From: Paracoccaceae bacterium
GTDB lineage: Bacteria; Pseudomonadota; Alphaproteobacteria; Rhodobacterales; Rhodobacteraceae
Direction of reading: 5' to 3'
Assembly (NCBI GenBank): GCA_039767595.1
Contig: JBDNBY010000080.1
Coordinates: 1 to 58,134, forward strand
DNA length: 58,134 nucleotides
Notes under the pieces: model-generated
Seen by the model: only the letters and a program-made list of their open reading frames with translations
Told to the model about the DNA's origin: nothing
The model's database searches: none
Position numbers and translations under genes: made by a program
Shown: positions 38,237 through 54,148 of the stretch, in pieces
How the letters are laid out: each line of letters starts with the position of its first letter
Position numbering within the stretch: the stretch's first letter is position 1

Positions 38237-38698
38237 TCAGATACCGATCGCGCCGCAAATTCGGTGAAGTGTTTCATACTCATCGGCGCTAAGCACTGCA
38301 GAGGTCAGGGCCTCATAGGCAAACGCGGGCATCGGAGTGATATGCGCTTTGGGATGCTGGGTGACGTGTACTTCTAACGCCTCGGCGATGCACACGGGTC
38401 GGCCGGCCTGTAGCATCGTTTGATGGATATGAAACCGCTGCGCATCGACGCCCAAAACGCGCGTCTGCACGACAAGATCCGCCCCCTCATGCACTTCTTT
38501 AAGGAACTTGCGGTGATCTTCGACAACATAGATCGTCGCCCCTGTGCGATCTCGATAGGCTTGATCAAAGCCGACGGCATCTTGGACGTGATCCACTGCG
38601 TAGGAAAAGACCAACCCGTAGTAGGCATCTTGCATATGCCCGTTGTAATCAATCCACTCGGGCCGCACACGATCGTGATACTCAAACACGCCCCCCAT
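38237..38698 (-). CDS. hotdog-fold acyl-CoA thioesterase (4HBT_2-like; paralog of the lcdH C-terminal domain)
   Basis: 153 aa from the ATG at 38698 (MGGVFEYHD..). The motif WIDYNGHMQDAYY parallels WVDYNGHMNEAHY in lcdH. The track ORF (to 38839) runs into the amidohydrolase gene. Confidence 0.75.
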   Translation of the reverse strand: MGGVFEYHDRVRPEWIDYNGHMQDAYYGLVFSYAVDHVQDAVGFDQAYRDRTGATIYVVEDHRKFLKEVHEGADLVVQTRVLGVDAQRFHIHQTMLQAGRPVCIAEALEVHVTQHPKAHITPMPAFAYEALTSAVLSADEYETLHRICGAIGI

Positions 38699-38699
38699 G

Positions 38700-39578
38700 T
38701 CAGAGCTCCATGCGGTAAAATCGATTTGCGGTGGCGAAAAATACATCCGCTTGCGCCGCCTCGGGGATGATTGCGCGATACGCCTCGGCCAAGGTCGCGT
38801 AATCGGAATAGAGCAAATCAACAGGGAAATTTGAGCCAAACATCACCCGTTGCGCCCCAAAGAGATCAAGGCAAATATCTACAATCGGGCGCATACTCTC
38901 AATGCTCCAATCATGGTCAAACATCCCCAAACCAGAAAGCTTGCAGGTGACATTGGGCAGATCGGCTAATCGCTTCAAATTCGAGGCCCAAATACCGATA
39001 TGCGCCATCTCGCGATTTTGCGGACTGCCCGCGTGACATAGGGCGAATTGCGTGTTGGGGCACTCTTGGATCAGCTCTGCCATCGCGGGGATCAACGCAG
39101 GCGTCAATTGCACATCAAACGACAGGCCCCGCTCTCCCAAAGCGGCCAGATGCGCCCGAAACATGGGATCGCTGATCAATGCATTGGTGCCATTGCGCGC
39201 GTCCTCGCCCGCGGCACGGCCAACAATCTGGCGCACCCCGCGCACAGAAGGCAGACGGCTCAGCCGGTCCAACTGCGCGCCGGCATCTGGGGCGGAGAGA
39301 TCGGCAAAACTAACTTGCACCATCGACCAATCGGGATGGGCCTGCGCCTGTGCATCGATCCACGCGGCCTCGGCCCAGCCGTCCTGCGCACCCACTTGAA
39401 CATGGACGGATCCAACGCCGCCTTGCGCGCGGACATCACCGCAGAACTCATCCATCAGGTAATTGCGTTGGATCGGCGTCGGATCACCAAAGAACCGCTC
39501 TACCCCCGTTTCCATCAACCAAGGATACTCAACGGCATTGAGATCCCAAAGGTGATGATGGGCATCAATCCAACTCAT
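38700..39578 (-). CDS. amidohydrolase_2 family metal hydrolase (lactonase/decarboxylase type)
   Basis: 292 aa from the ATG at 39578. The N-terminal IDAHHHLWD metal motif is typical of the PF04909 lactonase-type clade. There is an ATGA overlap with the upstream SnoaL gene. Confidence 0.8.
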   Translation of the reverse strand: MSWIDAHHHLWDLNAVEYPWLMETGVERFFGDPTPIQRNYLMDEFCGDVRAQGGVGSVHVQVGAQDGWAEAAWIDAQAQAHPDWSMVQVSFADLSAPDAGAQLDRLSRLPSVRGVRQIVGRAAGEDARNGTNALISDPMFRAHLAALGERGLSFDVQLTPALIPAMAELIQECPNTQFALCHAGSPQNREMAHIGIWASNLKRLADLPNVTCKLSGLGMFDHDWSIESMRPIVDICLDLFGAQRVMFGSNFPVDLLYSDYATLAEAYRAIIPEAAQADVFFATANRFYRMEL

Positions 39579-40579
39579 GTGCGCGGCACCTGTTGCATCC
39601 GCTCTAAAATATCCACGCCCAGCCCCTTCCAAAAATGCAAGACATCCATGAAAATCCAGTTTTCCGCCAATTTATCCCCATCGCGGCGGTACATGTCAAT
39701 CACGCGCATTTCGCCGCGCCCCTCCGAGGCCGGCATCCCCATAAAGCCGCCGTCATGCCGGGCTGTGAAATTCGGCCACCCGAAAAAGCCGCCATAGGCA
39801 CCTTCGGCAAGGCGGCAAATGTGCTGCGTTTTTGACCGATCGGAAAAGGCCGCGCGAAATGGGCCAGAATGCTGTTTGGCGTAACGCTCGATCGTGTAGC
39901 TCGAGCCGATCCCCGCTGGCCCCCACCACAGCATGTCATCATGCCATGTGCGGGCCAGTTCCTCCTCTAGCGGCAGACCCGATTGCCATGTGCCCAAATC
40001 GTTGATCATCGCATCGATCACCGCCCATGTCTGATCCCCCTCGTGGCGCGCGCGCGCCTGATACATCAGGCCATCATGGGTCAGTGGCCCCGGTTGAACC
40101 AAATGAGCCCCTGTTTGCGGCGCAAAGGGCATCAGCCCCGCTTGGATCATCACATGGGGGATATCAAAATACATCGCCGTCTCAACAATTCGGTCGCCCT
40201 CGACACGGTGAAATTCGCAATATCGTAGCATCGTCAGCTTGCCCGTTGGCGCGATCCCCAACCATGGCGCATCAAAGAGCCCCATCAGATGGCCCATTGA
40301 AACAACCCAGACATCGTCCTCTTGGCCTTGGACACGATTGTGCCCCGCCATGAAAATATCCATACGCCGCTGGATCCGCGTCAACGAGGTCAAAAGCGGT
40401 TGCCAAAACTGCGCCACGACGGCATTGGGGTCGCGAATCTCGTTAAAGGGATGAAACCCGCGCCACAGCGCATCAGGGGCGACATAGCGCGCAAACGCAG
40501 CGCTGGGATCATCAAAGAGCTGATCATAAAATGCGCGCACTAATGTTTTTTGTGCTGAAAAATCAAACATATGTCTCAC
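39575..40579 (-). CDS. double SnoaL/NTF2-like (ester-cyclase-like) protein, paralog 1
   Basis: 334 aa containing two NTF2-like halves. The C-half has GPAGIG..F..PF..AFSDR..GWPN..ENW..D.L..G.D.L.RM, shared with the 47531-48550 protein. The start is either the GTG at 40579 or the ATG at 40570. Confidence 0.7.
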   Translation of the reverse strand: MRHMFDFSAQKTLVRAFYDQLFDDPSAAFARYVAPDALWRGFHPFNEIRDPNAVVAQFWQPLLTSLTRIQRRMDIFMAGHNRVQGQEDDVWVVSMGHLMGLFDAPWLGIAPTGKLTMLRYCEFHRVEGDRIVETAMYFDIPHVMIQAGLMPFAPQTGAHLVQPGPLTHDGLMYQARARHEGDQTWAVIDAMINDLGTWQSGLPLEEELARTWHDDMLWWGPAGIGSSYTIERYAKQHSGPFRAAFSDRSKTQHICRLAEGAYGGFFGWPNFTARHDGGFMGMPASEGRGEMRVIDMYRRDGDKLAENWIFMDVLHFWKGLGVDILERMQQVPRT

Positions 40580-40594
40580 TCACCCTGCCAGTTT

Positions 40595-40608
40595 TGCATA
40601 CGCATTCA
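40595..40608. promoter_or_regulatory. weaker LacI-type half-palindrome TGCATACGCATTCA
   Basis: It shares the 10-mer TTTGCATACG (40593-40602) with the reverse complement of 40656-40665. It lies in the divergent control region. Confidence 0.3.
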
Positions 40609-40649
40609 AAAAAGAGTTGCCAAAACTTTACCGATAAGTCTAGTGTTTT

Positions 40650-40663
40650 TGCAAACGTATGCA
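40650..40663. promoter_or_regulatory. LacI-family-type operator palindrome TGCAAACGTATGCA
   Basis: A 14-bp CG-centred palindrome with 6 of 7 symmetric pairs (outer TTTGCA/TGCAAA arms are perfect). It lies 35 nt upstream of the ABC ATPase ATG, and a LacI gene is encoded in the same operon. Confidence 0.5.
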
Positions 40664-40697
40664 AATCAATTCACGACTTGGCACGGAGGCCTGTCAC

Positions 40698-41750
40698 ATG
40701 GCAGAAATACAACTGCGAAATGTCTCAAAACGGTGGGGCAATTTTGTCGGTGTTGATAAATTTGATCTGACCATCGCGGATCGTGAATTTTTGGTTCTGC
40801 TTGGCCCGTCGGGCTGCGGCAAAACCACGACGATGCGGATGATCGCAGGGCTCGAAGAGCCAACCGAAGGCGAGATTATCATTGATGGCAAAGTCATCAA
40901 CGACCTTGAACCCAAGGACCGCGATGTCGCCATGGTGTTTCAAAGCTATGCCCTCTATCCCAATAAAAACGTCTACGAAAACATCCGCTTTCCTCTCAAA
41001 GTGCGCGGCATTGATCCTAAGACACACGATGAAAAAGTGCGCCGCGCCTCGGCCATGGTCGAGCTGGATGAATTTTTACATCGCAAACCCGCCGAATTGT
41101 CCGGTGGTCAGCGTCAGCGCGTAGCCCTTGCCCGTGCCATTGTGCGCGAGCCGAACGCGTTTTTAATGGATGAGCCTTTGTCGAACTTAGATGCGAAATT
41201 ACGCGTCTCGACGCGGGCGCAGATCAAGAACCTCTCTCACGAGCTTAATGTCACCACGGTCTATGTCACCCATGACCAGATCGAGGCGATGACCCTCGCC
41301 GACCGCGTGGTCGTTATGGAAAAGGGCGTTGTTCAACAAGTGGGCAGCCCGACTGAAATTTATGACCGTCCGGCAAATACCTTTGTTGCGGGGTTTATCG
41401 GATCGCCCGCGATGAACTTAATGGAAGGGACGGCCGCAGCGGGCGTCTTTACATGCACGGATGCCGTATCCATCCCCGCGGCGCGCGCCGTTGATGGGGC
41501 GATCACCTTGGGGTTTCGGGCCGAGGACGCGCAGGTCGTTGAGACGGGCGGTCACATTAACGCGCCGATCTACACGCTCGAGTTATTGGGCGATGCGACG
41601 ATGGTCACGGTCAAAATCGCGGGGCGCTTAATCTCGGTACGTGCTGATAAAAATTATCGGGCGGCGATTGGCGATATGGTGTCAATCGCGGTCCCTGACG
41701 AAATTTGCCATCTGTTTGATCGCCAAACAGGTGCGCGGATCGAAGCCTAA
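40698..41750 (+). CDS. ABC transporter ATP-binding protein (MalK/UgpC, CUT1 type)
   Basis: Walker A (GPSGCGKTT), signature (LSGGQRQR) and Walker B (FLMDEPLSNLD) motifs are present, with a C-terminal TOBE-like domain. The ATG at 40698 has a GGAGG RBS, whereas the track uses 40659. Confidence 0.93.
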   Translation: MAEIQLRNVSKRWGNFVGVDKFDLTIADREFLVLLGPSGCGKTTTMRMIAGLEEPTEGEIIIDGKVINDLEPKDRDVAMVFQSYALYPNKNVYENIRFPLKVRGIDPKTHDEKVRRASAMVELDEFLHRKPAELSGGQRQRVALARAIVREPNAFLMDEPLSNLDAKLRVSTRAQIKNLSHELNVTTVYVTHDQIEAMTLADRVVVMEKGVVQQVGSPTEIYDRPANTFVAGFIGSPAMNLMEGTAAAGVFTCTDAVSIPAARAVDGAITLGFRAEDAQVVETGGHINAPIYTLELLGDATMVTVKIAGRLISVRADKNYRAAIGDMVSIAVPDEICHLFDRQTGARIEA

Positions 41751-41807: not shown

Positions 41808-41831
41808 AATACATAAACAGGGAGACACTTG

Positions 41832-43058
41832 ATGTTCTTACGTAAACTTATCCTCGCCAGTGGCCTGTCCATCACAGCTGGGACAGCCGCACTCGCATGT
41901 GACGTCGGTGCACGAGTTAGCATCGTCGGAAACGAATTTCCAGCCATCCAAACTGTGGGCGCCGAAGCGGCCGCTTGCTCGGGTGCAGAGGTCAAAACCA
42001 ACCTGACGGCTGACCACCAAAAGATCAACTTGCCAGGCATGCAAGGCAATCCAGCGGAATACACATCCGCGATTGTTGCCAACTCTTCAATTGTTGCGTT
42101 GATGAACGAAGACGTGATCCGCCCCTTGGATGATCTCGTGGCCAAACATGGCAGCAGCCTGAAGAAAAACCAACTGATCACCATTGATGGCAAAGTGATG
42201 GCCGTCGCCTTTATGGCCAATGCACAGCATTTGGTCTATCGCGCCGACGTGCTCGAGGCTGCTGGCCTCACGCCGCCAAAAACCTACGAAGAGATGCTCT
42301 CAGCCGCGCAAACCATTCGCGACAAAGGCCTGATGCAAAACCCAGTGGGCGGCGCCTACATGGCGGGTTGGAACCTGGCCCAAGAGTTCAACAACATGTA
42401 CCTTGGCATGGGCGGTGCGTTCTTCAAAGCCGGCACAGCCGAGCCGAGCATTAACTCAGAAGCGGGCGTCAAAACACTTGAGATGATGAAAGCCTTGTCA
42501 GAGTATATGAACCCCGACTTCCTCACACATGACAGCAATGCCACAAACGCCGAATTCCGTGCAGGCAATGTCGCGCTGATGAACATGTGGGGCAGCCGCG
42601 CTGCAACACTTGTCGATGCCGAGGGCGTGCCACAAGAAGTGGTCGATGGCTTTGCAATCGATGGCCCGATGACTGTAGGCGGGGGATCAACACCTGCGTC
42701 AACACTGTGGTGGGACGGCTGGACCGTTGCCAAGAATATCTCGGACGCCGAAGCAGAGGCTACGTTTATCGCCATGATGAACGGCATTCGCCCAGAGTTG
42801 ATGGCAAGCGAAGAGATCCGCACACAGGCTGTTTGGCTCATCGATGGCTATACGCCAACGGATGCCGCCAAAGGTGTTTTTGCCGCTGCGCAACAGAACA
42901 CAATTCCCTATCCAATGCTGCCCTTCATGGGCTTAATGCACACAGCACTGGGCGCAGAATTGTCTGACTTTATGCAAGGCAAAGAAAGCGCCGAGCAAGC
43001 TCTGGCTGATGTCGAGGCCGCATACCGCGCCGCAGCCAAAGAAAAAGGCTTCCTCTAA
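41832..43058 (+). CDS. ABC transporter extracellular solute-binding protein (family 1, sugar/CUT1 type)
   Basis: About 408 aa with a signal peptide (LILASGLSITAGTAALA). An SBP_bac_1-like sequence follows. GGGAGA lies upstream of the ATG at 41832. Confidence 0.85.
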   Translation: MFLRKLILASGLSITAGTAALACDVGARVSIVGNEFPAIQTVGAEAAACSGAEVKTNLTADHQKINLPGMQGNPAEYTSAIVANSSIVALMNEDVIRPLDDLVAKHGSSLKKNQLITIDGKVMAVAFMANAQHLVYRADVLEAAGLTPPKTYEEMLSAAQTIRDKGLMQNPVGGAYMAGWNLAQEFNNMYLGMGGAFFKAGTAEPSINSEAGVKTLEMMKALSEYMNPDFLTHDSNATNAEFRAGNVALMNMWGSRAATLVDAEGVPQEVVDGFAIDGPMTVGGGSTPASTLWWDGWTVAKNISDAEAEATFIAMMNGIRPELMASEEIRTQAVWLIDGYTPTDAAKGVFAAAQQNTIPYPMLPFMGLMHTALGAELSDFMQGKESAEQALADVEAAYRAAAKEKGFL

Positions 43059-43150: not shown

Positions 43151-44182
43151 ATGAAACATAGAACGTTTTTTTGGTTCTTTTTACCAACTGGGCTTGCGAT
43201 GCTATTATTCATCGCATTGCCGATTGTGTCAGTTGTGTTGCAATCCTTATTCACCCCGCACGAAGCGGTTTTTGTGACCGTCGAGAGTTGCACGCCCTTT
43301 GCATGCACCCAAGAAACCACCATTGACCATAGCGCGACCGAGGCGCTGCGCGAAGCGGCGCCGATGGGGCGATTTGCCGGTCTTGATATCTATTTTGATC
43401 GTGGGCATTTGGCCGTCGCAGAAGTCGGCGCCTTGTGGCGCGATAGCCCAAGCTGGGCGCATTTCTTTGATCGGCTTGGCAATTTACCCTTTTATCGCGC
43501 CATGGGATTTACCCTGACCTACACGTTTGTCGTGACCCCGCTCTTGATCATCCTTGGCTTGATGATTGCGCTGGCGGTCAATGCATTGCACCGCAAACTC
43601 AAGGGGTTGGTCATTTTCTTTTCACTCTTGCCAATGATTGTGCCGCCTCTTGTTGGGTCGCTTGTCCTCTTTTGGATGCTCGACAGTCGCGGGATTTTAG
43701 GCTCGTTTTTGCAATGGCTTGCCGATGACCCTGACCTGTCGCTCAAGGCGTCGACGGGGCTAACGTGGATCATGCTCATTGTGTATGGCGTATGGCATTC
43801 GGCGCCCTTTGCCTTTGTCGTCTTTTATGCGGGGCTTCAGACCCTGCCCCAAGACCAGATCGAGGCGGCGCGCATTGATGGGGCCAGCCGCTGGCAACAG
43901 GTGATGCATGTCATTGTGCCGCATTTGATGCCTTTGGTGACATTCGTCGCGCTGATACAATTGATGGATAACTTCCGCGTCTTTGAGCCGATTGTCGGCT
44001 TCAACGCAGAGGCACATGCGACATCCTTGTCGTGGATTATTTTCAACGATTTGGGCGGCGAGACACAGCAATTGTCAGCAGCCTCAGCGACCTCTGTGAT
44101 GACCATCATCGGCGTTTCGATTTTACTCACCCCCGTCTTGATCCGAACATGGCGCGATTTCAAAGGAAAATCTCATGCATAA
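43151..44182 (+). CDS. ABC transporter permease (MalF-like, with large periplasmic loop)
   Basis: 343-aa polytopic ORF with the EAA loop EAARIDGASRWQQVMHVIVP. An extended loop follows TM1. Confidence 0.9.
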   Translation: MKHRTFFWFFLPTGLAMLLFIALPIVSVVLQSLFTPHEAVFVTVESCTPFACTQETTIDHSATEALREAAPMGRFAGLDIYFDRGHLAVAEVGALWRDSPSWAHFFDRLGNLPFYRAMGFTLTYTFVVTPLLIILGLMIALAVNALHRKLKGLVIFFSLLPMIVPPLVGSLVLFWMLDSRGILGSFLQWLADDPDLSLKASTGLTWIMLIVYGVWHSAPFAFVVFYAGLQTLPQDQIEAARIDGASRWQQVMHVIVPHLMPLVTFVALIQLMDNFRVFEPIVGFNAEAHATSLSWIIFNDLGGETQQLSAASATSVMTIIGVSILLTPVLIRTWRDFKGKSHA

Positions 44183-45056
44183 CGCCATTCACAAACGTCC
44201 CTTGGGCCTGCGCCTGATGGCGAACGGGTTTGTTCTAATGTGGCTCGTGGCGGCGGCCTTTCCATTTATTTGGACGCTCTGGGGCAGCTTTAAGGTCGAG
44301 CTGGATTTCTTTTCCATCGCGGATTGGACAAATGCGATTTTCGGGCGCAACACCCAAGAGACCTATGGCAGCCCCTTCACCAGCACGGGATATTACGGCG
44401 CTTGGATCCAAGAGGAGTTTTGGCGCGCCTTTATCAACACGACGATCGTGTGCTTTTGCGTGGTGTGCACTTCTTTGACCATCGGCACGTTGGGCGGCTA
44501 TGCGCTGTCACGCTCTGGATTTCGCTATGTGTTTTGGCTGTTGCTGGCGGCGCTGATTTTCCGCGCCATGCCGCCGATCACATTGGTGGCCGGCTATATG
44601 CTGCCGTTCTTTGAGTGGAACGTATGGGGCATTTTGCCGACGACGATCATTGTCCTCGTGGCGATCAATCAGCCCTTTACCCTATGGATGCTACACTCCT
44701 TTTTCCAAAGCATTCCCAAGGAATTGGACGAGAGTGCCAAGGTCGATGGCTGCACGCAGTTCCAAGCCTTTCGCCATGTTATCATTCCTGTGATGTGGCC
44801 TGGGGTCATCACGACGGGCCTGTTTAGTTTTCTGCTGGCCTATAATGATTTTGCAGTGACCTCGATGCTCTTGAGCGAGGATAATCGCACAATGGTTCCC
44901 GAAATTGCAGCCTTTTTGGGCACAACATACACAGAAGGAAACGTCATGTTTGCAGTGGCTTCAGTCGTCTCGGCCACGGCGCCGCTCTTTGTGCTCGTCC
45001 TGTTTTTTCAGCGGCAGATCGTCAGCGGCCTGACCGCAGGGGCCGTCAAAGGATGA
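44175..45056 (+). CDS. ABC transporter permease (MalG-like)
   Basis: 293-aa ORF with the EAA loop ESAKVDGCTQFQAFRHVIIP. It overlaps the previous gene by 8 nt. Confidence 0.9.
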   Translation: MHNAIHKRPLGLRLMANGFVLMWLVAAAFPFIWTLWGSFKVELDFFSIADWTNAIFGRNTQETYGSPFTSTGYYGAWIQEEFWRAFINTTIVCFCVVCTSLTIGTLGGYALSRSGFRYVFWLLLAALIFRAMPPITLVAGYMLPFFEWNVWGILPTTIIVLVAINQPFTLWMLHSFFQSIPKELDESAKVDGCTQFQAFRHVIIPVMWPGVITTGLFSFLLAYNDFAVTSMLLSEDNRTMVPEIAAFLGTTYTEGNVMFAVASVVSATAPLFVLVLFFQRQIVSGLTAGAVKG

Positions 45057-45592
45057 AGGGCGCCAGACCAGAGCAAGCGGCCCTGACCCGCGACACAGAC
45101 CTGAGTAAAACCGACGCCACCCGCGCGGTGATTGAGGGCATGGTCGACGGGCTCAATGATCACCGCATTGATGATATCGGCGCGTTTTTCGCCCAAAGCT
45201 TTCGCTGGATGGGCAATTTTGGCTGCGGCACAAAAAATGGTCTGCAAGAGTTCCAAGACAATTGGCAACGCCCCTTTCAAGCGGCATTTTCAGATAAAGT
45301 CTGCATTGATGAGGCGCGGCTTTATATGGGCGAATGGGCCGCGGCCTTTGGCCGGCAGGAGGCCGTGCATTCAGGTGAATTCATGGGAGTTGCCCCAACC
45401 GGCAAGACCGTTGAAATCCGCTATATGGATTTTTGGAAAGTCGAAGACGGCAAAATCACCGACAATTATGTGATGGTCGATTTTCCGCATGTGCTCTCGC
45501 AATTAGGGGTGGATGTCTTTGGCGGTGAGGGCTGGGAGGCCTATGACCGCGGCACAAAAACGCCCCCGACACCAACTCAAAAGGACGCGTAA
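45053..45592 (+). CDS. single-domain SnoaL-like ester cyclase family protein
   Basis: 179-aa ORF with the ester-cyclase pattern ..W..PF..AFSD.. G.F.GV.PTGK.V....MDFW.V.DGKI..N.V..D....L.QLG. There is an ATGA overlap with the permease stop. Confidence 0.75.
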
Positions 45593-46905: not shown

Positions 46906-47534
46906 TCAAAGTTTATGGAAGAGCCACCTCAGTCAACGTCCAGGCGGTGATGTGGTGCATCACAGAGCTGGGGCTAGAGCATGAACGTGAGGACGTCGGC
47001 GGCGCCTATGGGGGGACAGATACCCCAGAGTTTTTGGCCAAGAACCCAATGGGCCTGATCCCTGTGATCGAAGATGGGGCTGTGACCCTCTTTGAAACAC
47101 CCACGATCCTGCGCTATGTGATACGCAGATATGGCACGCACCCTGCCGATCCTGCGGCAGCCGCGCAGCTAGAACTCTGGGCCGATTGGACACGGTCGCA
47201 TTTTTACAAACCCATGACCTATGGCGTCTTTTGGCAATTGATCCGCACACCAAAGAACGAGCGGAACCATGCGCAATTTGACAAAGATCGCCAAGAGATC
47301 AACGCCCTCACGCACACGATCGGCGCACAGATGCAAGGCCCGTATATCAATGGGGATACGCTCAGCATCGCGGATTTTGCCTTTGGCACGTTGCTTCATC
47401 GCTATTTCGAGCTGGAGTTTGAGCGCGACGCCCACCCCGCCGTCACCGCATATTACGAGGCGCTGAGACAGCGGCCGGCCTATCGGGCCCATGTCATGAA
47501 GGATCCCAATGACCTCAAAGTCGAGGGTGCATGA
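46902..47534 (+). CDS. glutathione S-transferase family protein
   Basis: 210-aa ORF with a GST N-domain ([25 protein letters not shown]) and a helical C-domain. It has ATGA overlaps at both ends. Confidence 0.8.
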
Positions 47535-48550
47535 ACGACCCGCACTCTGAGCATAAGTCGCGCATCGCGCCATTGCGCCGCGCCCTTTATAATTTTGAGG
47601 GCGCGCAAGTTGCGCTTGCGCTCAGAGATCTCTTTGCACCTGATGCCCAATGCCACATCTGCCATCCCTTTGGCACGATTGAGGGGCCTGAGGCGCTTTA
47701 TGATATGCTCTATGCTCCGTTGTGCGCGGCGCTCCCTGATCTAGAGTTTCGCGACGCCATTGTCATGGCGGGCCTTGATGATCATGGGCATCACTGGGTC
47801 GGGTGCAGCGGTCATATCATGGGCACCTTCAGCGCGCCTTGGCTCGATATTCCTGCAACGGGGCATGTGATCCACATGCGCTATCACGAGTTTTACCGAT
47901 TTAAAGAGGGTCGCGTCGTCGAAGTCCAAGCGATTTGGGACATTCCAGAACTCATGATGCAAGCCCGCGCATGGCCCATGGTGCCGTCCCTTGGGCGCGA
48001 GATGTGCGTGCCCTGCCCTGCGCCGCAAAATGGCCATGTGCCCCCGCCATGGGATGCCGAGCACGCTGAGGCCAGCAAGCGCCATATCACCGCGATGTTG
48101 CATCACATGATTAAATTTCCCGGCCAAGGCGGCCCAGAGGTGATGGAAATGCCGCGATTTTGGCATCCTAAAATGAATTGGTACGGGCCCGCAGGCATTG
48201 GCACCGCGCGCGGCATTTCTGGATTTCGAAAATGGCATCAAACTCCGTTTCTCAATGCAATGCCCGATCGCGGGCAGTTCAATGATCAAATCACCTTTCA
48301 TTTCTTTGGAGATGGGGATTTCGCCGCCGTCACCGGATGGCCCAATATGATCCAAACGATCACTGGGGATGGGTGGCTTGGCATTGCGCCGGCAGGACAA
48401 AGTATATCTTTGCGCAGTTTAGATTTTTGGCGCCTTGAAGAGGGCCTCATTCGGGAAAACTGGGTTTTGATCGATTTGCTCGATATCTATAGCCAAGTCG
48501 GGATTGATGTCTTGGCACGCATGCGCGCACTCACCGCGGCAGGGGTGTAA
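47531..48550 (+). CDS. double SnoaL/NTF2-like protein, paralog 2
   Basis: 339 aa, collinear with the 39575-40579 product (HPF..G.F.APWL.I..TG..., then W..M.WYGPAGIG ... GWPN ... ENWVLIDLL). Confidence 0.7.
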   Translation: MNDPHSEHKSRIAPLRRALYNFEGAQVALALRDLFAPDAQCHICHPFGTIEGPEALYDMLYAPLCAALPDLEFRDAIVMAGLDDHGHHWVGCSGHIMGTFSAPWLDIPATGHVIHMRYHEFYRFKEGRVVEVQAIWDIPELMMQARAWPMVPSLGREMCVPCPAPQNGHVPPPWDAEHAEASKRHITAMLHHMIKFPGQGGPEVMEMPRFWHPKMNWYGPAGIGTARGISGFRKWHQTPFLNAMPDRGQFNDQITFHFFGDGDFAAVTGWPNMIQTITGDGWLGIAPAGQSISLRSLDFWRLEEGLIRENWVLIDLLDIYSQVGIDVLARMRALTAAGV

Positions 48551-48556: not shown

Positions 48557-49579
48557 ATGGGCACAGTGCACTCCACAAAAATCACATCGTCCCAAGTGGC
48601 CCAGCGCGCCGGCGTCAGCCAATCGGCCGTCAGCCGCGTCTTTACCCCGGGGGCGTCCGTATCGCATAAAACCAAGGAAAAAGTCCTCGAAGCGGCCAAA
48701 GACCTCGGCTATCGCCCCAACTCTTTGGCGCGGGCGATGGTGTCGGGGCGCTCGATGATCATTGGGCTGGTCGTGGCCTATTTCGACAATCAATTCTATC
48801 CCGAGGCCCTTGAAAAGCTATCAAATTCGTTACAGGCTAAAGGCTATCACGTGCTCATCTTTACCGCGGCGCGCACGGCGGCGGACACGTTGGATCAAGT
48901 GATCGACGAAATCTTGGATTACCAAGTGGATGGCATCATCGCCGCCTCCGTGGCCCTGTCGTCAGATCTGTCCGAACGGTGCCGCGCGGCCAATATTCCG
49001 ATTGTGTTTTTCAACCGCTCGCAAGACGGGCATGATATCTCCGCCGTCACGTCGGACAACTATGCCGGCGGCTCAAAAGTGGCCGCCCATTTGATCGCAT
49101 GCGGTCATAGATCCATCGGCTATATCGCCGGTTGGGAAGGCGCCTCTACTCAGCGAGATCGCGAAGCAGGGTTTATCGCAGGGCTGCAGGCCCATGGTCT
49201 GAGCCTGTATAAACGTGAGGTTGGCAATTTTCGCATGGATCAAGCGCGCGATGCGACGCTACGCATGTTTGCCACTGCGCCGCCCACTGCCGTCTTTGTC
49301 GCCAATGATCACATGGCCTTGGCGGTGATGGACTGTTTGCGCTATGATCTTGGGCTGCGCATTCCCAAGGATGTGGCCGTCGTCGGTTACGATGATGTGC
49401 CGGCCGCGGCATGGCCGTCGTATAACCTCACGACCGTGCGGCAACCGGCCAACCGCATGGTGGCTGCGGCCATCGACACGCTGTTGGCAAAGATCGACAA
49501 CCAAGACATCGCCCCCCAACATATACAAATCGACGGTCCTTTGGTGATCCGTCGGTCCACTCAATGTGACGAAGGATAG
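48557..49579 (+). CDS. LacI-family transcriptional regulator
   Basis: 340-aa ORF. The N-terminal HTH (ITSSQVAQRAGVSQSAVSRVF) is followed by a periplasmic-binding-protein-like effector domain. Confidence 0.9.
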   Translation: MGTVHSTKITSSQVAQRAGVSQSAVSRVFTPGASVSHKTKEKVLEAAKDLGYRPNSLARAMVSGRSMIIGLVVAYFDNQFYPEALEKLSNSLQAKGYHVLIFTAARTAADTLDQVIDEILDYQVDGIIAASVALSSDLSERCRAANIPIVFFNRSQDGHDISAVTSDNYAGGSKVAAHLIACGHRSIGYIAGWEGASTQRDREAGFIAGLQAHGLSLYKREVGNFRMDQARDATLRMFATAPPTAVFVANDHMALAVMDCLRYDLGLRIPKDVAVVGYDDVPAAAWPSYNLTTVRQPANRMVAAAIDTLLAKIDNQDIAPQHIQIDGPLVIRRSTQCDEG

Positions 49580-49583: not shown

Positions 49584-50573
49584 ATGAAAGGGTTTGACCC
49601 AAAGTTTACGGATTTCCCCGACTACATCATCGGCATCACCAAAGAAATTTGGGAAGATCGCGGCATAGCCACGCTTCATCATTATTATGCGCCCGATATT
49701 ATCGTCCGCTCACCCAGCAGTATCGTGCAGGGCAACCAAGGTGTGATTGCCGCGACAATGGCCACTTTGGCCGAGTTCCCCGACCGGACACTCCTCGGCG
49801 AGGATGTGATTTGGAACGGCACGCCAGAGACCGGCATGCTCTCGTCCCATCGCCTGCATTCGACGGCGACCCATGCCAATTCTGGCGTGTATGGTGCGGC
49901 GACGGGCAAACAGCTGCGCTATCGGATTATCGCAGATTGCCACGCCCGCGATAATCAAATCGATGACGAATGGCTGATCCGCGATCAAGGGGCGATTGTG
50001 CGCCAATTGGGCTGGACCCCGCGCGAGTTTGCCCGCGACTTAATTCAGCGCGAAGGCGGCCCAGATCACTGCGCCCATCCCTTTAACCCCAAAGATGATC
50101 TCCAAGGCCCCTATACGGGCACAGGCAATGATAACGAATGGGGCGCGCGCTATGCCGACATCCTCAATCAAATCATGAAGGCAGACTTCTCGGTTATTCC
50201 AAATGCATATGATCGGGCCGCCAATCTGGCTTATGCTGGGGGTATTGAGGCTCTTTCCCATGAGGGGGCTGATCAATTCTGGATGGGCCTGCGCGCCTCG
50301 TTCCCCAATGCGCGCTTTACCATTCACCATCAGATCGGCCGCTCGGATCCCATGATGCCGCCCCGCGCCGCCCTGCGTTGGAGCCTGACCGGCCTTCATG
50401 ATGGTTGGGGCAGCTTTGGCGCCCCCACGGGCGCGCCCGTGCATATCATGGGCGCCTCACATGCCGAATTTGGCGCCGTGATCAGCGGACAGCCTAAACT
50501 GCGCCGTGAATGGGCGCTCTTTGATGAAACAGCCGTTTGGAAACAGATTTTATTACACACAGGTGAGCTATGA
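49584..50573 (+). CDS. double SnoaL/NTF2-like protein, divergent paralog 3
   Basis: About 329 aa from the ATG at 49584 (GAAGGA RBS). It has two ester-cyclase-like halves (LAEFPDR .. G.YG.ATGK; LRASFPNA .. GWGSFGAPTGAPV). Confidence 0.65.
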   Translation: MKGFDPKFTDFPDYIIGITKEIWEDRGIATLHHYYAPDIIVRSPSSIVQGNQGVIAATMATLAEFPDRTLLGEDVIWNGTPETGMLSSHRLHSTATHANSGVYGAATGKQLRYRIIADCHARDNQIDDEWLIRDQGAIVRQLGWTPREFARDLIQREGGPDHCAHPFNPKDDLQGPYTGTGNDNEWGARYADILNQIMKADFSVIPNAYDRAANLAYAGGIEALSHEGADQFWMGLRASFPNARFTIHHQIGRSDPMMPPRAALRWSLTGLHDGWGSFGAPTGAPVHIMGASHAEFGAVISGQPKLRREWALFDETAVWKQILLHTGEL

Positions 50574-51535
50574 CCCCAGATGATATGACCCCGCGAATTG
50601 TCCGCTATGGCGATCTCAAGCCGTGCAAAACTGCGTTTATCGATGCGCATACACCAGGCAGTGATCAAAAAGAGAATTTCACAATCATTGGCGGCGGCGT
50701 CTCAGAGAGCCCTGACCAACATGTCCATATCACCATCCCGCACGGCTTTAACATCGGCGCGGCGGGTCAGCCCCCCAAATGCCGCAATTCGCTGCATTCG
50801 CACCGAACGGCCGAAGTGTTCTTTGTCCTGTCGGGGCGCTGGCGCTTTTTCTGGGGGCAATATGGGGACGCAGGTGAAGTCGTTCTAGACGAGGGCGACA
50901 TTATCAACATCCCCACTGGCATGTTCCGCGGCTTTGAAAATATTGGCCAAGACTACGGAATGATCATGGCAATCTTGGGCGGGGACGATGCGGGCGGCGG
51001 TGTGATTTGGGCCCCTCAAGTGATCAAAGACGCATCCGACCATGGCCTTATCCTTGGGGAAAATGGCGTGCTATACGATAGCAAACAGGGCCAGTCCCTG
51101 CCCGTAGGTGTTCGTCCGATGCCAATCATGTCTAACGAAGAGGCCGCAGACTACCCAACGCCCAGCGCCATGCAAGTCGTGGGCGGCTATGTGCGGCGCT
51201 ATTGGGATCTTGTGGCGATCTCGGACAAAAAACCGATCAAAGTCATCGGCGAACGCGGCGTGATCCGTGACAAACCGGGGTTTGAAGTGGATTTCGTCTC
51301 GCGCAAGAGCGCCAGCTCAACGATGCACGCCCATGATCGACCCAGTGTCCTGATGCCTGTCAAAGGACATTGGCGCGTCACATGGGAGGGGGGCGAGACA
51401 ACATTGGCCCCGGGCGACACGATGTCCGTGCCCGAACACCTCATGCATTGCGCTGTGCCCTCAATGACTGGCGAGGCCGCGCTCTATCACGTCATCGCCA
51501 CGGACGATCCCGCCGGCGAGACTTGGAAAGGATAA
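50570..51535 (+). CDS. bicupin protein
   Basis: 321 aa with two cupin barrels. N-barrel: HSHRTAEVFFVLSG, then GDIINIPTGMFRGFEN. C-barrel: HAHDRPSVLMPVKG, then GDTMSVPEHLMH. Confidence 0.7.
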   Translation: MTPDDMTPRIVRYGDLKPCKTAFIDAHTPGSDQKENFTIIGGGVSESPDQHVHITIPHGFNIGAAGQPPKCRNSLHSHRTAEVFFVLSGRWRFFWGQYGDAGEVVLDEGDIINIPTGMFRGFENIGQDYGMIMAILGGDDAGGGVIWAPQVIKDASDHGLILGENGVLYDSKQGQSLPVGVRPMPIMSNEEAADYPTPSAMQVVGGYVRRYWDLVAISDKKPIKVIGERGVIRDKPGFEVDFVSRKSASSTMHAHDRPSVLMPVKGHWRVTWEGGETTLAPGDTMSVPEHLMHCAVPSMTGEAALYHVIATDDPAGETWKG

Positions 51536-51538
51536 ATT

Positions 51539-52660
51539 ATGACGATTAAAACAACTCATGTCGGATCGCTCCCACGCACCCAGGATGTGGTGGATTTCAT
51601 TTTCGCGCGCGAACAGGGCCAAGACTATGACCAAGCGGCATTTGATGCCGCCATGACCCGCGCGGTCAGTGAAACGGTCAAAAAACAAGTGGACGCCGGC
51701 GTAGATATCGTTAGCGATGGCGAGACCTCTAAAATCAGCTACGCCACTTATGTCAAAGATCGCTACACGGGGTTTGGCGGCGACAGCCCGCGCAATGCCC
51801 CCGCTGATCTCAAGCAATTTCCGACCTTTCTCAAACGCTTGGCCGAAGATGGGGGCACGCCGAAATATGCCCGCCCCATGTGCGTCGGTGAAGTGAAATC
51901 CAAAGGACAGGGCGAGTTAGAAAAAGACATCAACAATCTAAAATCCGCGATGGCCGAACATGGCGCGCAGCGCGGCTTTATGAATGCCGCCTCTCCGGGT
52001 GTGATATCGCTATTTTTACAAAATGATTTCTATCCTACGCGCGAGGCCTATCTCGCGGCGCTCGCCGATGCGATGAAGGCAGAGTATGAGACGATCATTG
52101 CAGCTGGCCTCGATGTGCAACTCGATTGCCCTGACCTCGCGCTCTCGCGGCACATGCTGTTTAACGATTTGTCGGACGAAGAGTTTATCAAAATCGCCAA
52201 TTCCCATGTCGAGGCTCTCAATCATGCCCTCAGCGATGTGCCTGCGGACAGAGTGCGCGTGCACATCTGCTGGGGCAATTATGAAGGGCCGCATGTGTGC
52301 GATATTCCCATGGCGAAAATGTTTGATACGCTCATGGCGACCAAATCGCGCTATGTTCTATTTGAGACCTCTAATCCTCGCCATGGCCATGAATGGGCCG
52401 TGTTCCGCGATCGCAAAGCGGATATCCCGGAGGACAAAGTTTTGGTGCCCGGCGTTGTGGATACAACGACCAATTTCGTCGAACATCCCGACCTTGTGGC
52501 GCAGCGCCTTGAGCGGTTTGTTGATATCGTCGGGGCGCAGCGTGTGATCGCCGGATCAGATTGCGGCTTTGGCACGTTTGCGGGCTTTGGTACAGTGGAT
52601 CCTGAAATCGCCTATGCCAAGCTGAGCGCCCTAAGCGCAGGGGCGCGGCAACTCTCGTGA
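51539..52660 (+). CDS. cobalamin-independent methionine synthase (MetE C-terminal domain)-like Zn protein
   Basis: 373-aa ORF with a Meth_synt_2-like N-terminus (TTHVGSLPR). Putative Zn-ligand contexts are VHICWGN and AGSDCGFG. Confidence 0.8.
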   Translation: MTIKTTHVGSLPRTQDVVDFIFAREQGQDYDQAAFDAAMTRAVSETVKKQVDAGVDIVSDGETSKISYATYVKDRYTGFGGDSPRNAPADLKQFPTFLKRLAEDGGTPKYARPMCVGEVKSKGQGELEKDINNLKSAMAEHGAQRGFMNAASPGVISLFLQNDFYPTREAYLAALADAMKAEYETIIAAGLDVQLDCPDLALSRHMLFNDLSDEEFIKIANSHVEALNHALSDVPADRVRVHICWGNYEGPHVCDIPMAKMFDTLMATKSRYVLFETSNPRHGHEWAVFRDRKADIPEDKVLVPGVVDTTTNFVEHPDLVAQRLERFVDIVGAQRVIAGSDCGFGTFAGFGTVDPEIAYAKLSALSAGARQLS

Positions 52661-53397
52661 CGCCCACTCTGCATGCAACACCGACAACTCTTGTGTTCCT
52701 GCCTGGGATGATGTGCGATGAACGCTTGTTTGCCGCGCAGATCACCGCCCTTGGGGATCAGTTTGTGACCAAGACCGCTGACTTTGGCTCCGCTGGCACA
52801 ATTGCGGATATGGCGCGCGCAGCGCTGGCGCTGTGCGAGGGGCCCATCATTCCGGTTGGCCTCTCGATGGGCGGCATTGTTGCCATCGAGATCGCCGTGC
52901 AGGCCCCAAAACGGGTCCAAAAACTCGCCTTGATGGATACAAATGCCCGCGCCGAAAAAACCCATATCGCCGCGCGGCGCGATCCACAAATCGCAGCGGC
53001 CCGCGCAGGGCAATTGGCCCGCGTGATGCGCGACGAGCTAAAGCCCAATTACCTCGCAGATACCCCAAATCGAGGCGCAATTCTCGATCTGTGCATGGAT
53101 ATGGCGATGGATTTGGGGGCCGAGGTATTTGTGCGCCAATCAAACGCCTTGCGCAGCCGCCCCGATTATGTGGAACGGTTGGGTCAGATCACCGTGCCGA
53201 CGATGGTGCTATATGGGCAATATGATCGTTTGTGTCCAGCCAAAAATCATCATGATATCGCCGCCGCCGTGCCAAACAGCACGCTGATCGAAATCCCAAA
53301 TGCGGGGCATTTACCGACGCTGGAAACCCCCGATACAGTCACCGACCACCTCAAGAGATTTGTCATGCAGGAGAATGCCCATGTCCCGTCACGCTAA
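52657..53397 (+). CDS. alpha/beta hydrolase
   Basis: 246-aa ORF with a GTG start overlapping the previous stop (GTGA). The nucleophile elbow GLSMGG and the NAGHLP histidine motif are present. Confidence 0.8.
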   Translation: MTPTLHATPTTLVFLPGMMCDERLFAAQITALGDQFVTKTADFGSAGTIADMARAALALCEGPIIPVGLSMGGIVAIEIAVQAPKRVQKLALMDTNARAEKTHIAARRDPQIAAARAGQLARVMRDELKPNYLADTPNRGAILDLCMDMAMDLGAEVFVRQSNALRSRPDYVERLGQITVPTMVLYGQYDRLCPAKNHHDIAAAVPNSTLIEIPNAGHLPTLETPDTVTDHLKRFVMQENAHVPSR

Positions 53398-54148
53398 TTT
53401 CAAACAGCGCCTTTTGAACCGCGATGCGATGAGCGGCACGTTTTTAAAAACGCCGCATTATGTCTTGGTCGAAGTGCTGGCGCAGTCTGGCCTTGATTTC
53501 ATTTGCCTTGATGCCGAGCATGCTCCGTTTGATCGGGCGGCCATCGATCAATGCTGTGCGATAGCGCGCGCTTTGGATTTCCCCCTGCTAGTGCGCGTCG
53601 CGGGGCCCGAGGCCAAAGAAATCCTCAGCGCAATGGATTGCGGCGCCGTCGGCGTTGTCATTCCTCATGTCGATAGCGTCGAGACGGCCCAAGCGATGGC
53701 GCAGGGGGCGCGCTTTGGCCTAGGCGGGCGCGGCTATGCCGGATCCTCGCGATGGGCTGGCTATGCCACCCGTCCGATGAACGAGGTGATGGATCAATCG
53801 CGCGATGAAACCGTCGTCATTGCCCAGATCGAAGAGCCCTATGCCGTGCCCTTGGCGGATCAAATTGCCGCGATCGACGGGATTGATGCCCTCTTTGCGG
53901 GGCCGGCGGATTTATCTGTGGGCATGGGGTATCGTGATCAATCATCGGATGATCTCAAACAGGCGCTCGCGCATGTGGGCGCGGCGGCGCAAGCGGCTGG
54001 AAAAACCTATGCCAGCTGGGTTGCCACCACACAGGCGATGAGCGATTGGCACGAAAAATATGGGGTCAATATGTTCTTTGTCTCGTCCGAACATGCATGG
54101 ATGCGCAGCGCTGCCAAAGAGATCGCGCAAACGGCTCAGGCGCTTTAG
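53381..54148 (+). CDS. HpcH/HpaI-family 2-keto-3-deoxy/4-hydroxy-2-oxoacid aldolase
   Basis: About 255 aa from the ATG at 53381 (GGAGA RBS). The motifs are LDAEHAP, IAQIEEP and FAGPADLS. Confidence 0.85.
   Translation: MSRHANFKQRLLNRDAMSGTFLKTPHYVLVEVLAQSGLDFICLDAEHAPFDRAAIDQCCAIARALDFPLLVRVAGPEAKEILSAMDCGAVGVVIPHVDSVETAQAMAQGARFGLGGRGYAGSSRWAGYATRPMNEVMDQSRDETVVIAQIEEPYAVPLADQIAAIDGIDALFAGPADLSVGMGYRDQSSDDLKQALAHVGAAAQAAGKTYASWVATTQAMSDWHEKYGVNMFFVSSEHAWMRSAAKEIAQTAQAL

Follow-up and report, generated by a model that had tools for sequence, protein, structure and literature searches.

Sugar operons regulated by LacI and built around ATP-binding cassette (ABC) importers of the CUT1 family, such as those of the mal, thu, and agl types, combine a binding protein, two permeases, and a MalK-type ATPase with a LacI repressor, a palindromic operator, and a divergent promoter layout. 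Loci of HpsN, the 2,3-dihydroxypropane-1-sulfonate (DHPS) dehydrogenase, carry a tripartite ATP-independent periplasmic (TRAP) transporter; families of the MesA-D type are short cobalamin-independent methionine synthases; and the gallate and protocatechuate (PCA) 4,5-cleavage pathway (LigI, LigJ, LigK; GalB, GalC, GalD) ends in pyruvate. Each of these systems shares features with the 17-gene cluster described here, which occupies positions 38,237 to 54,148 of contig JBDNBY010000080.1 of a Paracoccaceae bacterium, the whole stretch analyzed (58,134 nucleotides) being referred to below as the window. The importer, repressor, and promoter layout of this locus resemble those of the CUT1 sugar operons, from which it differs in having a binding protein remote from every solved sugar-binding protein and in lacking glycoside hydrolases as well as the kinases and isomerases of sugar metabolism. 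Its organizational kind, a repressor-controlled catabolic operon linked to a transporter, is familiar, whereas its enzyme set, with seven NTF2 domains, a new HisD subfamily, and a putatively catabolic MetE-fold enzyme, is not. We argue that the locus is probably a substrate-inducible, LacI-repressed catabolic island, which handles a family of imported compounds that share one constant core and differ in their decoration.

The evidence for a single regulated unit comes from the arrangement of the genes and from the operators between them. A map of the open reading frames (ORFs), together with Pfam and NCBIfam scans, reproduced the 17 genes with the domain content given in a preliminary description of this DNA, three on the minus strand and 14 on the plus strand (Table 1), including four SnoaL/NTF2 proteins over which Pfam distributes seven NTF2 domains. 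The tight joining of genes claimed there, through overlaps or gaps under 100 nt, also agrees with the junctions, which are overlaps of 4-23 nt or gaps of at most 93 nt, as does the layout of two operons diverging from a 118-bp region with a LacI-type palindrome. That region contains a pair of operators: O2, TTGCAAACGTATGCAA, is the sole match to its palindrome in the 58-kb window, and O1 sits 55 bp upstream of it. The pair, TTGCAnnCGnnTGCAA, is kept at a spacing of 54-55 bp in the equivalent intergenic region of most of the 16 loci inspected, both sequence and spacing being conserved across genera, and we read it as a phylogenetic footprint of LacI control over both operons. The LacI-family protein encoded inside the plus-strand operon has an HTH_LacI domain and a periplasmic-binding-protein-like domain, with a palindromic operator in the promoter that it is predicted to control, its gene is found at this position in 59 of the 80 related loci described below, and it would repress both operons via the paired 16-bp palindromes. 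An alternative ATG for the ATPase gene, at 40659, falls within the operator. The importer that opens the plus-strand operon has the composition of a CUT1 system, with an SBP_bac_1 binding protein, two BPD_transp_1 permeases, and a MalK/UgpC-type ATPase with C-terminal OB/TOBE domains that exceeds the cut-off of NF008653 (452 bits against 432). Its binding protein begins with MFLRKLILASGLSITAGTAALA, carries a signal peptide, and has only remote relatives in the PDB (best E 1e-12).

Comparative searches were seeded with the tandem SnoaL protein B, for which 5472 homologues were found, with relatives in at least 567 GTDB species; one genome was scanned per GTDB species, 80 loci were fetched with 10-kb flanks, and synteny was counted by tblastn of all window proteins against these 80 loci (last column of Table 1). 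Most of the 80 loci, from many genera, keep one gene order, in which the amidohydrolase and SnoaL-A genes diverge from those for the ATPase, binding protein, permease, permease, single SnoaL, and HisD-like enzyme, followed by SnoaL-B, an optional short-chain dehydrogenase/reductase (SDR), LacI, SnoaL-C, the bicupin, the MetE-like enzyme, the alpha/beta hydrolase, and an optional RraA-family protein. The SDR and RraA genes, both missing from the window, were counted in 41 and 17 of the 80 loci, respectively, by a separate ORF clustering that under-counts relative to the tblastn figures. The order was found in Ruegeria, Phaeobacter, Leisingera, Aliiroseovarius, and Actibacterium, as well as in Pelagimonas, Cognatishimia, Marivivens, HIMB11, and many metagenome-assembled genomes (MAGs). 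The conserved core consists of the importer, the three tandem and one single SnoaL/NTF2 proteins, the HisD-family dehydrogenase, LacI, and the bicupin; frequent members are the MetE-like enzyme, the alpha/beta hydrolase, the PF04909 hydrolase, and a pyruvate aldolase of either the RraA or the HpcH family; and the glutathione S-transferase (GST) and the thioesterase are accessory genes. The preliminary description had treated these genes as one LacI-linked catabolic locus and had named conservation of the neighborhood in related genomes as a check on this; operator and synteny are both conserved, with a shared order in most of the 80 loci and over many genera.

The cluster is widely distributed and modular in its content. 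Carriers in which it lies on a plasmid or chromid include Ruegeria conchae, three Ruegeria sp. strains, Tritonibacter mobilis, Marinovum algicola (pMaD9), and Paracoccus alcaliphilus. Variants in Ensifer adhaerens and Mesorhizobium sp. share the HisD-like enzyme, single SnoaL, SDR, bicupin, and hydrolase at 69-79% identity, that of Mesorhizobium also having RraA, and these rhizobial variants are without the MetE-like gene; the cluster of Mameliella alba includes an additional amidase. A variant in Vibrio pelagius has four tandem SnoaL genes with an ABC system and adjoins soxBDAG and purU, and one in the haloarchaeon Halobellus limi has four tandem SnoaL genes, one single SnoaL, the MetE-like gene, an aldehyde dehydrogenase (ALDH), an oxidoreductase, and a metallo-beta-lactamase (MBL) hydrolase. 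In the four gammaproteobacterial clusters examined (L090, L092, L093, and L094), from Microbulbifer, Pseudoalteromonas, Thalassotalea, and Halioglobus, an SSF symporter replaces the ABC system, and all four carry an HpcH aldolase; a TonB-dependent receptor is present in two (L092 and L093). The Microbulbifer cluster also encodes a 471-aa protein, and those of Pseudoalteromonas and Thalassotalea a 287-aa protein, with no or weak Pfam matches. Further variants occur in Thiotrichaceae. At the other extreme stand minimal clusters in SAR116 and other MAGs, in which a LysR regulator accompanies the transporter and tandem SnoaL B, C usually being present as well, and in these reduced SAR116-type loci the neighbors are unrelated (LysR and E1 genes of the pyruvate dehydrogenase or acetoin type). 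Because such clusters keep only the transporter and tandem SnoaL B and C, the tandem NTF2 proteins probably act directly on the imported compound. Among the 80 loci the binding proteins fall into identity classes of about 42%, 50%, 75%, and 83%, spanning 42% to 84% in all, whereas the HisD-like enzymes, where an orthologue is present, are 75-91% identical across genera and the MetE-like enzymes 76-90% identical, a combination which suggests that differently decorated imports converge on one core intermediate.

The HisD-like enzyme is the member of the cluster for which the most can be said from its relatives. Its nearest relatives in the PDB are the HpsN dehydrogenases 8v35 (1.8e-111, full length) and 8wwe (about 1e-111), with a true HisD at 3.6e-73. 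The HpsN signature is G-R-Y-A/S-H, with a sulfonate-binding, Zn-binding His126, and its counterpart in HisD is G-S-A-P-L (PMC11382572). The aligned segment of the enzyme studied here reads G-K-F-P-M, and GGK(F/Y)PMVAS is invariant in 55 orthologues; the catalytic Glu-His pair is kept, with GQAEHG aligning with Glu318 and His319 of CpHpsN. The generic domain model TIGR00069 is passed (425 bits against 244), and NF010343 is not. The genes hpsO and hpsP and those for a sulfolyase (SuyAB, CuyA, Xsc) were not found in the window locus or the related loci inspected. Since a GKFPM motif stands in place of the HpsN and HisD motifs and the hps and sulfolyase genes are missing, the enzyme represents a third subfamily, on an HpsN-like branch yet neither HisD nor HpsN by its signature motif. 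An assignment as HisD was rejected on the motif and on the closer PDB match to HpsN, and one as a DHPS dehydrogenase on the motif and the genomic context. The PF00815 fold and the catalytic Glu-His pair are shared with HpsN of the hpsNOP pathway, whereas the transporter here, ABC or, in gammaproteobacterial clusters, an SSF symporter, is unlike that of HpsN loci. By analogy with the mechanism of the family, the enzyme probably carries out a four-electron oxidation of a CH2OH group beside a hydroxyl- or amino-bearing carbon; the fold, the HpsN match, and the Glu-His pair together make it likely that a primary alcohol beside a hydroxylated carbon is oxidized in this way. Outside its cluster, Mameliella encodes another PF00815 protein.

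The four SnoaL/NTF2 proteins all fall within the NTF2-like fold, as judged from PF07366 or PF12680 matches and, for B, from an AlphaFold2 (AF2) model and Foldseek, although they are not of one subfamily. Tandem proteins A and B are paralogues (32% identity in BLASTP), and A has orthologues that are 55-73% identical in most full clusters. Tandem protein C shows no significant similarity to A or B in BLASTP, belongs to a different subfamily, and is retained alongside B by the minimal clusters of the SAR116 type. In sequence, the single-domain protein is similar to the C-terminal halves of A and B; across genera its orthologues beside the HisD-like gene show 76-87% identity, and they are invariably its neighbors. 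It aligns over its full length with SnoaL (1sjw), in which the catalytic residues Q105, H107, H119, and D121 correspond to Y, D, N, and V, so that the SnoaL catalytic set is not retained in this, the one protein that was aligned residue by residue. The AF2 model of tandem protein B (pLDDT 76) predicts a fold of two NTF2 domains, and its top Foldseek matches are epoxide hydrolases of the same two-domain architecture, the fused Lsd19 and the MonBI-MonBII complex, followed by assorted SnoaL-like proteins. It differs from Lsd19, MonBI-MonBII, and the SnoaL cyclases in that sequence identity is merely 12-25%, and from the SnoaL polyketide cyclases also in its context, which is an importer-linked catabolic operon rather than a polyketide synthase (PKS) cluster; neither the window nor any related locus inspected has PKS genes.

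The MetE-like protein consists of 373 aa with a single PF01717 barrel, not the two barrels and about 750 aa of MetE itself, and contains the motifs VHICWGN, ETSNPRHGHE, and GSDCGFG, which would supply the His-x-Cys, Glu, and Cys ligands of a Zn site as assigned by motif position. The single barrel and these Zn-ligand motifs are shared with core MetE and the short cobalamin-independent methionine synthases (PDB 1ypx, 3rpd); unlike core MetE, the gene is embedded in a catabolic operon, and the protein lies far below the methionine-synthase cut-offs of NCBIfam, which range from 258 to 930 bits, with a best score of 88 bits against a cut-off of 406. Because the gene is missing from many orthologous clusters, it does not encode a housekeeping enzyme; it is also present in Halioglobus and Halobellus. 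We infer from these features that the protein is a Zn-thiolate alkyl (methyl) transferase for which the pathway substrate serves as donor. The bicupin is about 80% identical across roseobacter genera, with H76, H78, E82, and H255 invariant, while at least 90% of sequences keep H253 and H293. Sequence comparison with the PDB gave no informative match and none to gentisate dioxygenase or quercetinase. The Foldseek neighbors nearest to its AF2 model (pLDDT 77) are the quercetin 2,3-dioxygenase YxaG, MncA, oxalate decarboxylase, 3-hydroxyanthranilate 3,4-dioxygenase, and salicylate and gentisate dioxygenases, all at TM scores of about 0.45-0.5. The AF2 and Foldseek searches thereby support generic folds only, both for the modeled bicupin and for the modeled tandem NTF2 protein. 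A bicupin orthologue with 81% identity (P0177) is recorded in an algal-culture transcriptome of MMETSP, and this record suggests that bacteria living with cultured microalgae express the bicupin.

The remaining enzymes belong to families whose named members are only distantly related. The amidohydrolase, which recurs in three of the four gammaproteobacterial clusters, has L-fucono-1,5-lactonase as its best NCBIfam match (120 bits against a cut-off of 400) and matches only 4dlf (an L-fucono-1,5-lactonase and the best, 7e-17) and 6uvz in the PDB, with none to LigI, LigJ, or LigW; its probable function is that of a lactonase or hydratase. A weak likeness to PcaD (TIGR02427, 102 bits against 256) marks the alpha/beta hydrolase, which could be an esterase, a lactonase, or a C-C hydrolase. 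The HpcH aldolase is weakly GarL/HpaI-like, its nearest NCBIfam matches being GarL, HpaI, and RhmA, all below their cut-offs, and it is 43% identical to the HpcH protein of the Microbulbifer cluster and 69-70% identical to those of two of the loci (L007 and L011). In most roseobacters an RraA-family protein holds the equivalent position and HpcH is rare, so two unrelated families supply the aldolase according to lineage, which marks this step as integral to the pathway. The GST matches MaiA weakly (33.8 bits against a cut-off of 171), is found at this position in one further locus only (L024), and lies near the cluster in another (L068) and in Marinovum; the thioesterase resembles, in NCBIfam, the C-terminal thioesterase domain of carnitine dehydrogenase.

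These comparisons changed several points of the preliminary description. It had listed a HisD-family dehydrogenase, and the family was confirmed, while the HpsN-like branch and the separate subfamily had been missed; the HpcH aldolase that it named is present in the window and is rare in roseobacters (two of the 80 loci), the substitution by RraA having likewise escaped notice. The GST and thioesterase, which it had taken as key clues to thiol-conjugate or epoxide chemistry, turned out to be lineage-specific accessories outside the conserved set, in two and seven of the 80 loci, respectively. Its proposal of a decorated substrate fits the pattern of a variable binding protein alongside a constant HisD-like enzyme. 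The backbone of a nonphosphorylative sugar or sugar-acid route that it saw in the locus is weak, since the defining dehydrogenase, dehydratase, mutarotase, and kinase are missing. Its statement that the set matches no characterized pathway stands, with no NCBIfam equivalog, close PDB relative, or literature description found: in NCBIfam (release June 2026) no equivalog reaches its cut-off for any cluster enzyme, the generic TIGR00069 HisD domain model alone passing; no close relatives with an assigned role were found in the PDB for the cluster proteins; and the literature searched on SnoaL, HisD/HpsN, cupin, roseobacter, and mycosporine/gadusol topics contains no description of this gene set.

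Individual pathways were compared with the locus and set aside. The homarine operon homABCDER differs in composition (FAD enzyme, peptidase, ALDH), and the MtgBCD glycine-betaine system is cobalamin dependent and also differs in composition. The gentisate pathway was rejected on the low MaiA score of the GST, the lack of an FAH-family gene, and the unmatched bicupin, and the GST is in any case missing from 78 of the 80 loci. Of nonphosphorylative sugar-acid routes (Weimberg/Dahms, L-fucose/L-rhamnose type), only the PF04909 lactonase-like protein and HpcH are present in the window, which contains no sugar 1-dehydrogenase, acid-sugar dehydratase (enolase/IlvD type), mutarotase, or kinase. The lower gallate/PCA 4,5-cleavage pathway does not match either: there is no LigI or LigJ orthologue, the RraA proteins of the relatives score 30 bits against the TIGR02798 cut-off of 304, and the window has HpcH in their place. 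The locus shares with that pathway the families of its late steps, PF04909 hydrolase/hydratase and, in the relatives, RraA, and both include an isomerase step and yield pyruvate; unlike it, the locus has no LigB-type dioxygenase and no enzyme at the family threshold, and the half made up of the importer and the NTF2, HisD-like, and MetE-like proteins has no counterpart there.

If the locus is a catabolic island for a decorated family of compounds, its proteins could be placed in the following order, although the succession of steps, the NTF2 chemistry, and the identity of the substrate are deduced from family membership. The CUT1 importer would take up a small, polar, sugar- or cyclitol-like compound, probably belonging to a variably decorated family, on which the tandem NTF2 proteins A, B, and C would act first, removing or rearranging substituents by hydrolysis, elimination, or tautomerization. 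The HisD-family enzyme would convert a primary alcohol beside a hydroxyl- or amino-bearing carbon to a carboxylate with two NAD+, the MetE-like Zn enzyme would pass a methyl group of the substrate on to a thiol acceptor, and the bicupin would cleave or isomerize the oxidized core. The PF04909 and alpha/beta hydrolases might then open a lactone or ester, and a class II aldolase would release pyruvate in a terminal step. Scans for promoter and terminator consensus sequences gave no clear signal for this model.

Mycosporine-like amino acids (MAAs) and gadusol are methoxylated C7 cyclohexenones with a C(OH)-CH2OH group and variable amino-acid substituents; they act as natural sunscreens in algae, cyanobacteria, corals, and the eggs of fish, and MAAs occur dissolved in seawater. 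They are our leading candidate for the substrate, albeit a doubtful one, as they offer variable substituents on a constant core, a 2-methoxy enol ether, and a C5 tertiary alcohol bearing CH2OH, the last of which is, by analogy, a 1,2-diol terminus of the type that HpsN oxidizes. Were this correct, the NTF2 enzymes would strip the amino-acid substituents, the HisD subfamily would oxidize the C5 hydroxymethyl group, the MetE-fold enzyme would move the methyl group of the enol methyl ether onto a thiol, and the bicupin would open the ring between C2 and C3. The ring product would be HOOC-CO-CH2-C(OH)(COOH)-CH2-COOH, that is, 4-carboxy-4-hydroxy-2-oxoadipate (CHA), which the aldolase would split into pyruvate and oxaloacetate; this compound represents the substrate class of RraA-type aldolases. 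The minimal SAR116 clusters, with a transporter and two NTF2 proteins, would then harvest just the amino acids. Marine bacteria reportedly convert shinorine and porphyra-334 to mycosporine-glycine and 4-deoxygadusol by enzymes that are unknown (PMC3083659). The literature searched contained no catabolic pathway for MAAs or gadusol and no link between DHMBA (3,5-dihydroxy-4-methoxybenzyl alcohol) and gadusol; that the locus is the first described catabolic pathway for these compounds is nonetheless an idea to which we give a low probability.

Several findings tell against the MAA proposal. The rhizobial clusters have no MetE-like gene, nor do three of the four examined in Gammaproteobacteria, so demethylation is not universal. 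The RraA proteins of the relatives are remote from the CHA aldolase LigK (30 bits against 304), and genes for a serine dehydratase, an amidase, and a sarcosine oxidase were each found as a neighbor only once among 94 loci. The 120 best homologues of the Vibrio tandem SnoaL protein include none from Vibrio harveyi, which reportedly hydrolyzes MAAs. A larger substrate could be indicated by the TonB-dependent receptors that two of the four gammaproteobacterial versions carry. In addition, the window is without the SDR of most relatives (41 of 80), so that its pathway may differ in detail from theirs.

The closest competitor starts from a sugar, polyol, or glycoside, which would be imported and converted by the HisD-like enzyme to a uronic or aldonic acid; after lactone opening, cupin and SDR steps resembling those of KdgF, KduI, and KduD would yield a 2-keto-3-deoxy acid, from which an aldolase would release pyruvate. 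Such a sugar, sugar-acid, or uronate route would account for the CUT1-type importer and the LacI regulator, and a series of nearest matches runs in its direction: L-fucono-1,5-lactonase for the PF04909 protein, KduD for the SDR of the relatives (214 bits), KdgF, weakly, for the C-terminal cupin domain, and GarL, HpaI, and RhmA for HpcH. All of these matches are far under the family cut-offs, however, and an acid-sugar dehydratase, a sugar 1-dehydrogenase, a mutarotase, a kinase, and a glycoside hydrolase were not found in any of the cluster versions inspected, whereas the seven NTF2 domains and the MetE-like enzyme have no role in known sugar routes. We therefore regard this explanation as unlikely.

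More unlikely still is a methoxylated, hydroxymethyl-bearing aromatic or hydroaromatic compound (a phenolic of the benzyl-alcohol type, or one that is quinate-like) channeled into a lower pathway of the gallate/PCA meta-cleavage type by alcohol oxidation, O-demethylation, ring cleavage by the bicupin, isomerization by the GST or NTF2 proteins, hydration or lactone opening, and aldol cleavage. The bicupin fold is indeed nearest to quercetin, salicylate, and gentisate dioxygenases, yet the protein has no sequence match to gentisate dioxygenase or quercetinase. In the same way, PF04909 includes LigI and LigJ, but the amidohydrolase has no PDB sequence match to these or to LigW. The RraA family includes the CHA aldolase LigK/GalC, with a weak TIGR02798 match in the relatives, the alpha/beta hydrolase is weakly PcaD-like and the GST weakly MaiA-like, and the Mameliella cluster adjoins homoprotocatechuate genes; against these stand a CUT1 or SSF importer and LacI control, both atypical for aromatic acids. 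Furthermore, substrates of the HisD family are held via a 2-OH or 2-NH2 group, which is missing in benzyl alcohol (PMC11382572). In its later steps the scheme also coincides in part with the lower half of our MAA/gadusol route.

A methylated onium osmolyte, that is, a betaine or sulfonium compound with a 2,3-dihydroxypropyl-like or amino-alcohol end, whose demethylation would fall to the MetE-like enzyme and whose alcohol end would be oxidized by the HisD-like enzyme, strikes us as very improbable. The conserved Zn-thiolate site of the MetE-like enzyme would suit this chemistry, as would the resemblance of the thioesterase to the betainyl-CoA thioesterase domain of carnitine dehydrogenase, although neither the MetE-like gene nor the thioesterase is universal. 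Among the neighbors, soxBDAG and purU adjoin the Vibrio pelagius cluster, dmdA and an SBP56 gene that of Marinovum, and SBP56 the mini-cluster of Phaeobacter piscinae, and some loci have a choline-dehydrogenase-like glucose-methanol-choline (GMC) oxidoreductase; each such neighbor, however, was seen once or twice only. The transporter is of the CUT1 or SSF type and not BCCT or ProU, and this explanation leaves the seven NTF2 domains, the bicupin, and the aldolase without a role. Finally, biosynthesis of a polyketide-like secondary metabolite by SnoaL "ester cyclases", a thioesterase, a methyltransferase-like enzyme, and tailoring oxidoreductases, which is what the Pfam and NCBI names (SnoaL polyketide cyclase/ester cyclase) and the polyketide and polyether enzymes among the Foldseek neighbors evoke, has next to no likelihood, given that no PKS, nonribosomal peptide synthetase (NRPS), acyl carrier protein, or exporter was found in the cluster versions inspected, that an importer with a periplasmic binding protein (65 of 80) and a LacI repressor (59 of 80) accompany the cluster, that the SnoaL catalytic residues are replaced in the single-domain protein, the one tested, and that the operon ends in a pyruvate aldolase.

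Table 1. Genes and operators of the LacI-linked cluster, with positions in the window, domain evidence, standing in the cluster, and number of the 80 related loci in which the gene was found by tblastn
Feature	Position	Strand	Evidence or remark	Standing	Loci (of 80)
4HBT_2 hotdog thioesterase	38237-38698	-	PF13279 2.4e-24; start refined to ATG 38698	accessory	7
PF04909 amidohydrolase_2	38700-39578	-	PF04909 2.7e-38; start refined to 39578	frequent	31
Tandem SnoaL/NTF2 protein A	39575-40570	-	two SnoaL stretches (Pfam)	core	
Operator O1, LacI-type	40594-40609		TTGCATACGCATTCAA; degenerate; read from sequence		
Operator O2, LacI-type	40649-40664		TTGCAAACGTATGCAA; one mismatch to a perfect 16-bp palindrome		
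MalK/UgpC-type ABC ATPase with OB/TOBE domains	40698-41750	+	PF00005, PF17912, PF08402; start refined to ATG 40698	core	55
CUT1-type periplasmic solute-binding protein (SBP_bac_1/8)	41832-43058	+	PF13416, PF01547; start refined to ATG 41832	core	65 (with permeases)
ABC permease 1 (BPD_transp_1)	43151-44182	+	PF00528	core	65 (with binding protein)
ABC permease 2 (BPD_transp_1)	44175-45056	+	PF00528	core	65 (with binding protein)
Single-domain SnoaL/NTF2 protein	45053-45592	+	PF07366 1.1e-16	core	
Predicted HisD-family Zn/NAD four-electron alcohol dehydrogenase	45595-46905	+	PF00815 1.5e-131	core	55
Glutathione S-transferase	46902-47534	+	GST_N and GST_C	accessory	2
Tandem SnoaL/NTF2 protein B	47531-48550	+	Pfam; seed of all comparative searches	core	
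LacI-family repressor	48557-49579	+	PF00356 and PF13377; inside plus-strand operon	core	59
Tandem SnoaL/NTF2 protein C	49584-50573	+	two Pfam stretches; start refined to 49584	core	68
Bicupin, probable metal-dependent oxygenase or isomerase	50570-51535	+	Cupin_2 twice	core	48
MetE-like single-barrel Zn enzyme	51539-52660	+	PF01717 1.3e-12; no N-terminal MetE domain	frequent	44
Alpha/beta-fold hydrolase	52657-53397	+	PF12697, PF00561	frequent	31
HpcH/HpaI class II pyruvate aldolase	53375-54148	+	PF03328 3.9e-23; start refined to 53375		2

Further genes lie on either side of the cluster. Abutting the 3' end of the thioesterase gene is a separate operon of the TctCBA type (31002-38231), which encodes a TctE/TctD-like two-component system, TctC, and TctA, together with a family III CoA-transferase and a citryl-CoA lyase (NF004864, above its cut-off), so that it has a two-component regulator and an uptake system of its own. 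In HIMB11 (L034:15248-18775) the cluster likewise adjoins genes for TctA, the CoA-transferase, and the lyase, at 58-83% identity, and a link between this operon and the pathway, for example through a citrate-like end product, is possible. Antisense within tctA (34617-36239), on the minus strand at 35763-35890, lies a match to the Rfam family RF02646, "Ruegeria cis8 sRNA" (70.5 bits against a gathering score of 58). Further upstream (29042-31032) is an AraC/GlxA-type regulator (DJ-1/PfpI and HTH_18) beside a solute-binding protein, and GlxA-family regulators also flank the clusters of Ruegeria conchae and Vibrio pelagius. Downstream (54145-58134) follow a minus-strand LysR regulator, an ALDH resembling alpha-ketoglutaric semialdehyde dehydrogenase (KGSADH), an M19 dipeptidase, and an ORF cut off by the end of the window; the ALDH and peptidase recall homD and homC of the homarine operon (PMC13236597), a superficial likeness by gene type. 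Elsewhere, a gene of the SBP56 (methanethiol-oxidase-like) type and a small ORF adjoin the cluster or mini-cluster on two unrelated plasmids, Marinovum algicola pMaD9 (L081), where the SBP56 gene sits with dmdA and dmdB, and Phaeobacter piscinae pP14_a (L086), which may reflect coincidence on catabolic plasmids or else hint at methyl-sulfur chemistry.

Hundreds of species carry the cluster or a close variant of it, among them abundant marine taxa from the Roseobacter-group genera, HIMB11, SAR116, and OM60/Halioglobus, as well as the algal polysaccharide degraders Microbulbifer, Pseudoalteromonas, and Thalassotalea. Its high conservation across genera speaks for a common and ecologically relevant substrate, and the locus probably marks a common route of marine carbon flow, the substrate of which is small, polar, and unnamed by current annotation. 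The binding protein, the LacI repressor, and its operator are usable for ligand fishing. Identification of the substrate would assign functions to the GKFPM subfamily of HisD, to catabolic tandem NTF2 enzymes, and to a nonbiosynthetic MetE-fold enzyme, and it would add a currency to models of carbon flux from phytoplankton to bacteria.

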